NCBI GenBank assembly: GCA_045837725.1
Contig: JBEWZL010000119.1
Coordinates: 1-64,000, forward strand
DNA length: 64,000 nucleotides
Direction: 5' to 3'
DNA from: Vermamoeba vermiformis
Taxonomy: Eukaryota
Shown: piece after piece, positions 904 to 6,757 of the stretch
Layout: every line of letters begins with the position of its first letter
Numbering within the stretch: the first letter of the stretch is position 1
Translations under genes and position numbers: made by a program
Notes under the pieces: generated by a model
What the model was told of the DNA's origin: nothing
What the model saw: the letters and a program-made list of their open reading frames with translations, nothing else
The model's database searches: none

Positions 904-1947
904 ATGCCAGAATACCTTGAAAACAAGCTAGATGCAAGTGCCATCAATGCCAAAGCAAAGGGCCACAAGTTCAACTCAATATCCACTGGTCCATACAAAG
1001 TACCTACTTCTTCAGAGCCCCTACCTACCATGAATGGACAGTATACTCTCTCTGCCTCTGCCATTGGAAAGTGGCTTATTATCAAGCTGCGGCAAAAACG
1101 TCAACTTAAGCACACTCTCTACATCTCTCTCAGCATGAAAGGACAAGTTGTGTTTCTTACCCCTGAACAGTATGAAGCTGAAAGCAAATTTGTGGCTATT
1201 GCTTTCCATCGTGCAGATGGCTTGGTCATTGGACTCTTCCACAAGCCCAGCAACCACATTGTTATATATGTGGATTACAAACCTGACACTCTTTCACATG
1301 ACTTCTTCCTTGAACCATCAGCATTCAAAAAGCACCTGCAACAGAAGTTGAAAGCTACCCGCAAGAACCTGGCTACTACTCCTCTCTGTGTATTGATGCT
1401 GGATCAAGACTTCTTTCCTGGAGTTGGAAACTATCTGCGTGCTGAAACTCTCCATAAGGCAAACATTCCACCTTTCACTCCTGCTAGCCTCCTGAACGAA
1501 CCTCAGTTTTTGCAAACTCTGTTGGATGCTCTACATGCAATTGTGATGGAATTCATTGCCAAGTTACCAGATCACTACAACATGCAAGATGCTCAAATGA
1601 AAACTTGGTTTGAGAATGATTTCCTGAAGGTGTATGGCAAACAAGACTCCCAACGTGCCTTTGACTCCAGTGGAAAGAAGATTTGGTGGAAAGGACCAGG
1701 GGGACAGCTTCCCTATGTACCAACAGAAGATGTATCCAAAGAATCTGTTGGTCCTTATAGTGGATGGGCAATGGAGCTGGAACAAACTGAAATTACTCAC
1801 CAGGACAAGCAAGCTCTTCACTATGCAGTGCGCAAAGGAAAGCGTGGACGACCTAGAGTGATACGCAACTCTATTGGAAGACCAAGCCTGGGCCGCCCTC
1901 AATACAATAATAGAAGAGCAAAGCAAAAGTTTATGTACCGTAAATAA
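904..1947 (+). CDS. Fpg/Nei-family DNA glycosylase, NEIL1-like (zincless finger type), intronless
   Basis: N-terminal MPEYLE (catalytic Pro2/Glu3), YTLSASAIGKWL, H2TH motif LDQDFFPGVGNYLRAETL..IPPF, C-terminal LKVYG..DSSGKKIWWKG aligning to NEIL1 LRCYG..DRHGRTIWFQG; basic tail. Confidence 0.85.
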   Translation: MPEYLENKLDASAINAKAKGHKFNSISTGPYKVPTSSEPLPTMNGQYTLSASAIGKWLIIKLRQKRQLKHTLYISLSMKGQVVFLTPEQYEAESKFVAIAFHRADGLVIGLFHKPSNHIVIYVDYKPDTLSHDFFLEPSAFKKHLQQKLKATRKNLATTPLCVLMLDQDFFPGVGNYLRAETLHKANIPPFTPASLLNEPQFLQTLLDALHAIVMEFIAKLPDHYNMQDAQMKTWFENDFLKVYGKQDSQRAFDSSGKKIWWKGPGGQLPYVPTEDVSKESVGPYSGWAMELEQTEITHQDKQALHYAVRKGKRGRPRVIRNSIGRPSLGRPQYNNRRAKQKFMYRK

Positions 1948-2655: not shown

Positions 2656-5114
2656 TTAAAAATAAACAAATTCGACTTTGCTGTTCATACCACAAGGGTT
2701 ACCAGTACGACCTGATATAATAATAACGTTAATAATTTGATTTGATCGCGTGCCAACTCCAATTATTCCTAGAATTGCAAATTCTTAATTAATGACTTAC
2801 GAATGCGCATGTAACCGCCTTCTCCCCACCAGTTGCCCCATGAGTTACGAATAATCCAGTAGTCCTTGCCGGTCGAATATTCGGTGCCATAGCCAACAAT
2901 AGTAATAATGTGATTTAACGAACCACCGCAGTCACTACCCGGTTCGTAAACACCGCCTTTGTAGGCTATGAAGCTGTTGCTGGCAAGAATTCCAGCAGTG
3001 GCAACGCCTTGGTTGACCCAGTAGATAAGGTTCGGGTCAGTTGTCCTGCCTTTGTCGGTGATCAGCACGGTTCCCGCGAGCGCACCAAGGCCAGAAGATC
3101 CTCTTCGGCAAGAACCTTTAGCGTTTTGATAAGGATAATCCGAGTCATAAGCCAAACCTCCGTTCGACCTGGCGAAGGCCCATGCATTTTTCATGTCACC
3201 ACCTGATAATTTGAAATGATATTAGTAACTTTTCTTATTAATATCTTCAAGCTCATAGCAATGCATTGTATTATTACCCATCTATTTTGTAAGATCCGAT
3301 GAAATTTCTAATCATTACGTACCGCTGCAGCTGTAACCATCGGAGCAATCAAGAACTTGTTGCGGTGATAAGACTGGAGGTGGTTTTTGGTTTTTGATGG
3401 CCCAGTTAGTCTCAATACTAGTTGTTGTTGCAAAAGCCCAGCAAGATCCGCAACTGTTCTGGTACTTCACCGGTGACGAATAACCTCGATCGGTCCACGA
3501 GAACTTGTTATCTTGAGGCACTGATACTGGTGGGTTCACTGGAGGTGGTTCAGGAATCGGAATGGGAGTGGATGCGACTGGAGCGGCAACAGGGGTCGGC
3601 GCTACTGGCACAGGGGTCGGCGCTACTGGCACAGGCATTGGCGTTGGAATTGGCGTAGGCGCAGGAATAGGTGGATTGTCATCGATGCATTGTTGAACAA
3701 ACTTGTAAATGTTGTTGCGCCATCCACCACCGCACATCTGATCGCCGTTTCCAGCACAAGGGACGTTGCAGTCACTTTCGGAGGCTTGACCGTACGCACC
3801 GAACGAACTGCCGCAGAAACATTGCGTGGCGAACTGAAGACCTGCAACAGCAAAGCCTTGTTGATTGCACGTTTGCGTGCACAACTCAACGGTCATGTCG
3901 TTAGAGATGTAGACTGATCCTTGCAGATCTCGATTGGCATCGTCGACGAAACAGCCCTGGTATTGCGCCACCATGACACAACTGCTCGCGATGAACTTGG
4001 GGTCATCTTCTCGAGGCTTAAGGCTGTACACTGAATTGCGCCACCAAGCACCGCATTGTTGATACGCGTTACCATAGCACGGCATGTAACACTCGGAATC
4101 GGAAGCAGTTCCGAATTGACCGTAACTGTTCGAACAGAAGCACTGATTGCCTGCTTGAAGGGCTGCGTACGTGTAGCCACCGTTGCCGCAAGCAGTAGTG
4201 CACATATCGACCGTCATGGCCCAGTGCGAGAAGTACATGTTGGATAAGTCACGCAGATAAGAGTCGATGAAGCATCCGACGTATTCAGTAGCAGGTGGTG
4301 CAGATGCGCCAAGGCATGCGCCAGAAGTGCACTATAATAAAAAATGAAGTTCAGATCCGATTCAGGATGCGGTCGGTAACTCTCGAACTAAAGAGATACG
4401 TACACCAGTGTCGCAAGGAGCTCCGCAAGTAACCATCTGACATCCATCGGATACACGACCACAAGTAACGTTGCCGCATGGATTAAGTTGTGGGACGCAA
4501 GTGCTGTTGTGGGGCTTGACTCCTCTGAAGTTGCCACGAGGAGCCCAAGTGCAGTGCCAGTATTCACCAAGAGTAGGGCAGATGGCCAAAGCGCATCCTA
4601 CTCGGTTGCTACAGATTAAAATAACCGTTAGAACAGAATTCAAGTTGCGCGTCCGATTTAAACGTTGACTTACGTGGACCACCAAACCATTTGAGTATAG
4701 TTCGATGCTTTGTATGCGTTGTTGTCATCACCACGGTAGTTTACGTACTCAGCTTCCCAAGCCGTGAGCACCTAAAAGGATTTACAAATTAATTTAAGTA
4801 TATTATTTTAATTTTAAACTTACTTGTTGATAGTTAACCGGCTTATTCGCTCCAGCAATGTAATACGTCTGTCCTCGAACGCCTCTTAATGAAGGGTCCA
4901 AGCCAGCTTCGCATTGACTAACCCAGTTCAAAGACTCTTGTTCCAATTTGTCGTCCCAAGTAATAGCCTTCATATTAGCAGGTGGGGGAGTTACTCGAGC
5001 ACGGATAGCCTTGATGTAATCCAATACATTAGATTTATCGCTATCGGTAAGTTGGTTGGCACTCTCCGCAATTGCCGCGAAAAGAATTACGCTCAGAATT
5101 AACAAAACACGCAT
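2656..5114 (-). CDS. Secreted multidomain protein: signal peptide - CAP/SCP domain - Cys-rich linker - 2x WSC - Pro-rich linker - papain (C1A) catalytic domain; no I29 propeptide
   Basis: Spliced exons give MRVLLILSVILFAAIAESA; CAP motifs ANMKAITWDDKLE, NYTQMVW, RVGCA, CTWAPRGN; WSC motifs YVGCFID..MTVDMC..QCFCSN..C..PC.GN..QQCG (twice); papain QNSCGSCWAF, LNHIITIVGYG, YWIIRNSWG..WGEGGY; last exon RTGNPCGMNSKVEFVYF*. Confidence 0.85.
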
Positions 5115-5325
5115 GTTGTGTACGTGCAAGCTAGATCGATAGATATAATTAATACTTTGGCACGAAAAAATTAAGATACTTGCGAGTCCATAAATTTTTG
5201 TACTGATTGGTCGACTCGCTATATTTTTTTTGCCCGCCGCAAATTTCGAAGTTATTTTCCTAGACCGAATAGCAGTAAACCCGCTTTATAGCAAACATTT
5301 ACCATTCTAGGCATCATTTTACATC

Positions 5326-5949
5326 ATGAGAACCAGCATCTACTGCGTAGTATTGCTTTCCGTCCTCAGCGTTTCGCTCGCTTGGACGGATGTCGAGTTG
5401 CAAGAAGTATTCGATGCTTTTAACGAAAACTATGGCTACTCTTTCAAGGCCGGCGACGAGTATAATAATGCATTCGAGAATTTCAAAACAAATCTTCAAG
5501 ATGCGGCTTCACAATCCGGTAACGGAGGTAAAAAAATATATGAATTGCATAAATAAATATAATACTAACCGTTATAATGCCTAGTCGAGTACGATATCAC
5601 TCCTTATAGCTATATGAGCCAAGCAGAACAGATGGCAATGCTTACGACGGTTATTCCTGAAGTCGCGGTTGCTGCCGCTCTAACTGAAGGCGCAATTGCA
5701 GGCATCGTTGTTGGATGCGTCGGTGCTGCTGGATTGGCCGTTGGAGGTGTATTCCTTGGCTTGCACTTGAAGAAGAAGAAGGAAGAAGAGAAGAACGCTG
5801 GATCCACCGAGATGACCCCTACGACCAGCACTACGAGTGCTACTACGACTACCAAGCCTGCCAAGGGTGTTGATATCTATCCTAGCATTGAAGGTCGTCA
5901 TCAATCCATTACTGCTAGAGCTCCTGCTATCAAGAAGACTCCTCAATAA
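5326..5949 (+). CDS. Type I membrane protein with extracellular I29 (cathepsin propeptide)-like inhibitor domain
   Basis: Intron 5528-5584 (GT..TACTAAC..AG) joins ORFs 5326 and 5614 in frame: signal peptide, FDAFNENYGYSF..DEYNNAFENFKTN (ERFNIN-like), YDITPYSYMSQAE (GNFD-like, cf. GITPFSDLT.EEF), TM AIAGIVVGCVGAAGLAVGGVFLGL, stop-transfer KKKK, short cytoplasmic tail. Confidence 0.7.
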
Positions 5950-6115: not shown

Positions 6116-6757
6116 CTCGACATCGTCACCCCAAAAGTCACAAAGAAATTCGGCGTGGTCTACCTCACTGGGGGAGAAGTGCTGAAGTCAGCCGACATAC
6201 TCTACTCGCAACGCATTGAATTGAGTAAGTGCGCGGGCAATAATAATCAGCAAGACTTACTTAATTCGCAGGTTTGACCAACGAGTCGTTTGGAGTCTTC
6301 ACGTTCATTCCAGAAGGATTACCTGGAACGTTCTACGACGTAATATCACTTAGCGTTCCGTCATCCTCTCAGCGCTACCCAATTTCAAGTTGTCCAATCA
6401 AGTTAGAGCAGCACACCGCGTTGCCACCATTAGCGAGATCTGGCTCGGTTTGGACCCGTGTAGAGTATGGCGATACCCAAACTAAGCAAAAATAATACAT
6501 TGGGTCAACAGAGGTCAACTTTATTATCAGGGTATTATTTAACTAGTAAATTCCAAATAATTATAGAATCGCGTATAATAGTATTGTGTTTACTAATATA
6601 TTTGCTGAAAATTATTTTTATTTATTCTAAAATAATATTTTTAGCCAACTTACCATTAGAGTTAGCCCGCGATTTTTGGCAAGGCCACAATGTGCATTTC
6701 AAAACGAACTTCAAAGGCCCGTTCAAATTCGATTCGAAGACAGTGCCGAAGTATTGA
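6116..6757 (+). pseudogene. Possible degraded gene relic of unknown product
   Basis: Canonical intron ~6225-6271 (GTAAGT..CGCAG) joins two open frames in phase, but there is an in-frame stop just upstream and a frame break before 6467-6757. Confidence 0.25.

Follow-up and report, generated by a model that had tools for sequence, protein, structure and literature searches.

In papain-family proteases, the propeptide is normally used once, as part of the same chain as the enzyme, and is then destroyed. Two adjoining genes of the amoeba Vermamoeba vermiformis raise the question of whether a propeptide can also be kept in the membrane, encoded separately, and serve a protease that lacks its own. 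Both lie near the start of the window analysed here, i.e., the first 64,000 nucleotides of contig JBEWZL010000119.1 (assembly GCA_045837725.1), whose genes are densely packed and interrupted by short GT..AG introns, as in a compact eukaryotic genome, and whose GC content is 48%. One of them encodes a papain-type protease without a propeptide, and the other a membrane protein with a domain of the I29 propeptide family and no protease. The domain complementarity of the two genes is real; what it means for their function is the subject of the following paragraphs.

The protease gene occupies positions 2656..5114 of the minus strand. Its open frame, Pfam matches, propeptide profile and RNA contigs describe six exons (5114-4824, 4771-4674, 4608-4404, 4331-3323, 3202-2801 and 2711-2656, all five introns being GT..AG) and a product of 686 residues. 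Exons 1 to 3 (4404..5114) encode a signal peptide, a CAP domain recognized by Pfam on exon 1 (22.5 bits vs a cut-off of 21.1) and a cysteine-rich linker. The 5′ part of exon 4 (3681..4331) encodes two WSC domains (two stretches, E 1.9e-37, Pfam), which are followed by a stalk of about 56 residues rich in Pro, Val and Ala (3513..3680). This stalk lies where a propeptide would be expected and passes directly into KFSW at the start of the mature papain domain. The papain domain (2659..3512) is interrupted by introns 4 and 5, and its two main exons score 56 and 109 bits with Pfam Peptidase_C1 (cut-off 20.7), which places it in family C1A. Alignment with ananain locates the catalytic residues C495 (codon 3443-3441), H632 (2912-2910) and N654 (2846-2844) as well as the oxyanion residue Q489; Cys, His and Asn are all intact. 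Among solved structures, those nearest to it are ananain, bromelain, ficin and cathepsins S and L, but the domain is at most 38% identical to 17 fetched relatives and sits on a long branch in a tree of 18 papain domains that lacks resolution. A home-made propeptide profile, for which the proregions of 17 fetched cathepsins were used, gives the whole protease -2.1 bits. The protease is thus a C1A member and not a proenzyme of the cathepsin L type.

Transcripts bear directly on this gene structure. The joints of introns 3, 4 and 5 are found in RNA contigs of three runs, one from each of three studies, introns 1 and 2 being predicted only; the intron 3 joint, between exons 3 and 4, shows that the CAP-side exon and the WSC exon belong to one transcript. 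The contigs of the three studies jointly cover positions 3323-3938 gap-free, and one of them spans 3803 to 3044, which takes it from the second WSC domain across the stalk and into papain; all that it lacks of this stretch is intron 4 and a 21-nt repeat of the stalk. Because these contigs run unbroken from the second WSC domain via the stalk into the papain domain, there is no hidden propeptide exon. An earlier, sequence-only reading of this DNA had described a gene that goes straight from a Pro-rich linker into a papain domain with intact His and Asn and without an I29 propeptide, and had named a propeptide exon in cDNA as evidence that would overturn it; the profile score, the residues and the contigs uphold that description. 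The stalk itself is variable: three of the synonymous changes that make up 6/8 of the base differences in the protease RNA contigs fall in it, and one copy of its 21-nt tandem repeat (3589-3630) is absent in runs X1 and X3 and in the recorded proteins P0005 and P0195, so stalk length varies between strains.

The same data weigh on the most prosaic alternative, namely that mis-assembly or a misread gene structure has created the pair, the protease having a propeptide after all or the neighbouring I29 gene being a dead relic. Protease transcripts are present in three of the four runs examined out of 18, with 63%, 40% and 33% of the coding sequence covered at a depth of 2-4.5, whereas the runs examined contain RNA contigs neither of protease exons 1 and 2 nor of this I29 copy, which would suit an artefact; RNA contigs show presence only, and holes prove nothing at such a depth. 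The raw-read run X16 gave 8 poor reads and comes from another organism or is uninformative. Against the artefact stand the gap-free coverage described above and the near-identical exons P0001, P0005 and P0195, which come from independent assemblies. Together with the diverged homologues considered below, which keep both architectures, and with an I29 frame that is open and conserved, these observations largely refute the artefact, and we regard it as very unlikely.

The neighbouring gene, here called I29-TM, lies on the plus strand (5326..5949) and comprises two exons (5326-5527 and 5585-5949) separated by an intron that is predicted only. Its open frame, propeptide profile and ESM Atlas matches describe a predicted type I membrane protein of 188 residues, in which a signal-like start is followed by an I29-like ectodomain (residues 20-89; 5383..5649), a short stalk, a membrane helix (residues 103-129; 5689..5769; hydropathy above 2.0) and a cytoplasmic tail of about 59 residues (5770..5949). 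According to the profile and a structural model, helices 1 and 2 of the ectodomain are encoded by exon 1, and the strand and the cleft-covering helix by exon 2. Comparison with the homologue P0003 divides the tail into a Lys-rich stop-transfer, a variable Thr-rich stretch and a strongly conserved end of 30 residues.

Several lines of evidence identify the ectodomain. The spliced protein reaches 36.8 bits on the home-made propeptide profile, in an alignment that crosses the splice site, against 10.9 for the best of 1,000 shuffles and 1.3 for the reversed sequence; the I29 identity of the spliced 5326-5949 product, which the sequence-only reading had proposed to check by HMM search, is thereby borne out on this profile. 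The Pfam scan covered exon 1 only, which by itself scores 18.3 bits with Inhibitor_I29 (E 0.003), below the cut-off of 24.4. The top three ESM Atlas hits for exon 1, all at 0.93, comprise two named I29 and a third with I29 on 33% of its members. The exon 1 model (pLDDT 88.6) folds into the expected pair of helices (3-17 and 25-46), and the only PDB chains found at E<=10 are propapain (4qrg) and the Toxoplasma cathepsin L propeptide (3f75_P). These matches (TM 0.89, rmsd 1.1-1.2) have E values of 4-5, which are not significant, and come from a model of exon 1 only that was built on a cathepsin alignment.

The motifs are another matter. With positions assigned by the motif spacing that we assume, only 3/6 residues of ERFNIN and 0/4 of GNFD are retained: R, I and N of the former and G, N and D of the latter are altered, the ERFNIN Arg being Ala49, the GNFD Asp Tyr77 and the Phe after Glu82 Gln; the Arg of the salt bridge is thus lost. 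The core aromatics F29 and F53 are kept, as are E45 and E82, and Ala at the place of the ERFNIN Arg also occurs in one intact cathepsin, P0033. For crammer, the equivalent bridge (R28-E67) is described as critical to orienting the helix towards the cleft (PMC3551606). The gene thus encodes an I29 domain by profile and shape, yet one that fails by motif. The architecture that had been read from the sequence, i.e., signal peptide, I29 domain and membrane helix at 211 bp from the protease gene, stands; its ERFNIN/GNFD-like character proves loose, and the tail, taken to be short, is about 59 residues long.

Homologues show which parts of the two proteins are kept. P0003, a homologue of I29-TM with 72% identity to exon 2, shares 9/12 residues of the cleft-covering helix (residues 78-89), among them its unusual SQA-Q residues, whereas identity in the flexible parts is 15/42 (a post hoc comparison, Fisher p 0.02, the segments having been chosen after the alignment was seen). 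Identity amounts to 23/27 in the membrane helix and 26/30 in the last 30 tail residues, as opposed to 11/29 in the Thr-rich stretch. Since the helix, the membrane helix and the tail end are better conserved than the flexible parts, the gene is probably alive, and the cleft-covering helix is probably still under selection. The tail end (5860-5946) contains a Tyr and several Ser/Thr and matched no known family; it is a candidate sorting or signalling motif. Among longer proteins, no homologue of exon 1 was found. On the protease side, P0006 (49% identity overall) has the second WSC domain, a stalk of about 18 residues and then papain, again without a propeptide, from which it follows that loss of the propeptide is old and tolerated. 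In the profile search with exon 4, multi-WSC proteins crowded the results, and P0006 was the only one of the best 150 to have a papain domain. Both halves of the pair therefore appear to be under selection. Papain domains without a propeptide of their own occur in another setting as well: the recorded parts of the fetched proteins P0023, P0026 and P0196 contain tandem papain domains and at most one propeptide, and the second domain is preceded by a short linker that has no I29.

This pattern of conservation can be read in a second way. The I29-like domain might have been repurposed so as to bind no protease, in a protein for signalling or adhesion of which it would be the small folded ectodomain and the tail the conserved part. 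Its altered motifs and an exon 1 below the Pfam cut-off would be expected on that account, as would the fact that the tail end and the membrane helix are the most conserved parts of the protein. It also receives some support from P0002 and P0004, JGI proteins that are variants of I29-TM exon 2 and are apparently frameshifted just after the cleft-covering helix (helix 3). In the shifted frame, 8/11 and 7/11 of their residues fit the P0003 helix, and 8 was reached by 1/2,000 shuffles; they may be broken copies or the source of a soluble, crammer-like I29. But the cleft-covering helix remains conserved and the profile match spans the whole domain, and a domain that has ceased to bind proteases altogether seems improbable to us.

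Does the position of the two genes tell more? Their start codons are 211 bp apart, and the AT-rich gap between them (5115..5325) is a putative shared promoter. The head-to-head layout alone says nothing of partnership, because 8/26 neighbour pairs in the window are divergent according to a rough, hand-made gene list, which is the chance level and agrees with the caveat entered in the sequence-only reading that such pairs are common here. That a stand-alone I29 gene should adjoin a propeptide-less papain gene would seem unlikely to be chance. Other features surround the pair. Downstream of the protease gene lies a short inverted repeat with arms of about 9 bp (2272-2310, found by eye), and further out an intron-less gene of lower GC (904-1947, plus strand) for a DNA glycosylase of the Fpg/Nei type (Pfam), possibly foreign, for which no close relative was found in the viral sequence collection. 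Beyond I29-TM, positions 6116-6503 (plus strand) hold the 3′ part of a spliced gene with a 47-nt intron (6225-6271) and no Pfam match. RNA contigs from three runs match it at a depth of 10-50 with about 15 differences and extend 5′ by up to 783 (X1) or 1,467 (X3) bases that are absent from the window; the window appears to contain a shortened duplicate of a gene that is well expressed.

A shared origin offers an explanation of the adjacency. We lean slightly towards the view that the two genes are halves of a re-shuffled cathepsin, separated by one inversion. The ancestral locus would have held a cathepsin gene (signal-I29-papain) head-to-head with a surface-protein gene (signal-CAP-WSC-WSC-stalk-membrane helix-tail), and inversion of the middle, with breaks after the stalk and after I29, would have swapped the 3′ ends and left both present genes, still head-to-head. 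A Pro-rich stalk precedes papain in one product and a similar Val/Pro/Ala stalk precedes the membrane helix in the other; similar stalks at both presumed junctions fit such a swap. The membrane helix of I29-TM presumably resembles those of WSC surface sensors. No unswapped ancestor (a CAP-WSC-TM-tail protein) occurred among 196 fetched proteins, and no telling inverted repeat was found at the possible breakpoints. Because one inversion would by itself yield the two genes in the orientation observed, their adjacency does not have to mean that they are partners; an origin by inversion would be compatible with a partnership and would not require one.

The third alternative is the most serious. 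The adjacency may be a fossil and the two products may have independent jobs, the protease folding and working without a propeptide, and I29-TM being a general membrane-bound inhibitor of other cathepsins, whether lysosomal enzymes of the cell itself or enzymes of its prey or predators. A single inversion would suffice for the layout, of a kind common in the window; stand-alone animal I29 proteins act on ordinary cathepsins; and P0002 and P0004, together with a 74-nt piece in run X1 that is 90% identical to the I29-TM tail and comes from a paralogue or a related species, suggest more than one copy of I29-TM. The X1 contig (5869-5942) was also considered as a tail paralogue with another ectodomain, which was rejected, its unaligned 99 nt being the variable Thr-rich stretch only. 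Nor does the premise that C1A proteases normally need their propeptide, as the sequence-only reading had put it, hold throughout: cathepsin L is described as requiring its proregion for folding and ER exit, and falcipains as folding without their prodomain (both PMC4842899).

Among the points in favour of a partnership, near-identical versions of both genes (P0001 and P0005) are each recorded on a contig of 5,218 bp, probably one and the same contig of another strain. The longest contigs recorded for P0003 and P0006 measure 559,078 bp and 67,060 bp, whereas the sizes should match if the exons lay together and both were called; since eukaryotic exons are missed by gene callers and the two possibly belong to different species, this is a weak point against conserved linkage of the homologues, and in favour of independent jobs. 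Two metagenome scans for the same locus were blank, and viral scans were blank or gave membrane-helix noise; 20 matches in a scan of prokaryote genomes were likewise disregarded as membrane-helix look-alikes. Across 17 cathepsins, similarity to the I29 part and similarity to the papain part show no correlation (rho 0.27, p 0.31, n 16), and complex prediction with exon-sized chains without alignments, in which the fold of the partner is uncertain, gave a score of 0.01, which speaks neither for nor against binding. On the other side, both products have signal-peptide-like starts and can thus meet. A secreted cysteine protease without a cap passes the ER and Golgi unguarded, and a dedicated guard would therefore be useful. 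The SQA-Q residues in helix 3, shared with P0003, fit a special partner. On this evidence, we consider independent jobs a real possibility, though a less likely one than a partnership.

The best explanation of the pair remains a membrane-tethered propeptide that acts in trans on the neighbouring protease, and we give it an even chance. Both products would enter the secretory pathway, where the anchored I29 protein would bind the papain domain in the manner of a propeptide and keep it folded and silent in transit. Where the complex goes would be decided by the conserved cytoplasmic tail, and pH or proteolysis would loosen the contact and release the protease at its site, its hold being perhaps weakened, or altered in pH sensitivity, by the lost salt-bridge residues. 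CAP and WSC domains would then retain the released enzyme on glycan-rich targets; fungal WSC domains are reported to bind beta-glucan (PMC9252488), and possible targets of the enzyme are therefore fungal walls or the coat of the cell itself. Tethered action in trans, combined with the origin by inversion, gives the fullest account, a cathepsin split into a two-gene system of a glycan-targeted, propeptide-less protease and a dedicated membrane propeptide that acts on it in trans to fold, silence and route it, with a shared promoter and a tail deciding the site of release; this combination is put forward tentatively. The effector/immunity-like module proposed in the sequence-only reading survives in so far as the complementarity is real and both halves are apparently under selection. 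It is weakened by an adjacency that one inversion explains equally well and by an I29 domain without the salt-bridge Arg, and the labels "attack protease" and "immunity" would follow from the CAP and WSC domains and the analogy with bacteria only.

The pair has a real and unusual anatomy, which diverged relatives retain, and the partnership is plausible. If it is true, the anchored propeptide, working in trans, would serve as an off-switch that can be used repeatedly and sorted within the cell. The pair would then provide a test, set up by nature, of whether I29 can fold and inhibit a protease when it is encoded by a gene of its own, and the locus would be a clear case of one inversion making two lasting chimeric genes. 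Even without a partnership, neither the type I membrane I29 protein nor the CAP-WSC-WSC-papain protease was found described in the open-access literature, most subscription papers lying outside it. Neither WSC nor a split I29 comes up in the accessible part of a papain-family survey (PMC10380794), and no eukaryotic pair of a protease and a tethered propeptide was found in the same open-access literature.

Comparison with known systems places each half of the pair separately. With the cathepsin L-like C1A proenzymes (signal-I29-papain), the protease shares a papain domain with Gln, Cys, His and Asn, but the propeptide is replaced by CAP-WSC-WSC-stalk and the domain lies on a long branch. Falcipain-2/3 are C1A enzymes described as having a membrane-spanning sequence in a prodomain that is not needed for folding (PMC4842899); that prodomain is part of the same chain, whereas here the propeptide-like part would be a separate type I membrane protein. 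Separate genes for cathepsin-propeptide homologues are known as mouse CTLA-2alpha/beta, Drosophila crammer and Bombyx BCPI (MEROPS I29). CTLA-2alpha, which has a signal sequence, is reported to inhibit and also stabilise cathepsin L in trans, and these stand-alone inhibitors are described as acting on ordinary cathepsins, no membrane anchor being mentioned in the accessible text (PMC4089206); I29-TM, in contrast, has a C-terminal membrane helix and a tail, lacks the conserved Arg and is encoded beside a propeptide-less protease. Cysteine protease genes that adjoin an inhibitor gene have been described in bacteria, i.e., SpeB-Spi of Streptococcus pyogenes, in which Spi is a propeptide analogue, and Bfp-Bfi of Bacteroides, in which some of the inhibitors are predicted membrane-tethered lipoproteins (PMC2873492). 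According to the same account, the bacterial pairs are co-transcribed, belong to family C10 and consist of zymogens with their own propeptide, Bfi being staphostatin-like, whereas the pair in Vermamoeba vermiformis is eukaryotic, divergent and of the C1A/I29 type and has a protease without a propeptide. Among these systems, SpeB-Spi is its nearest precedent.
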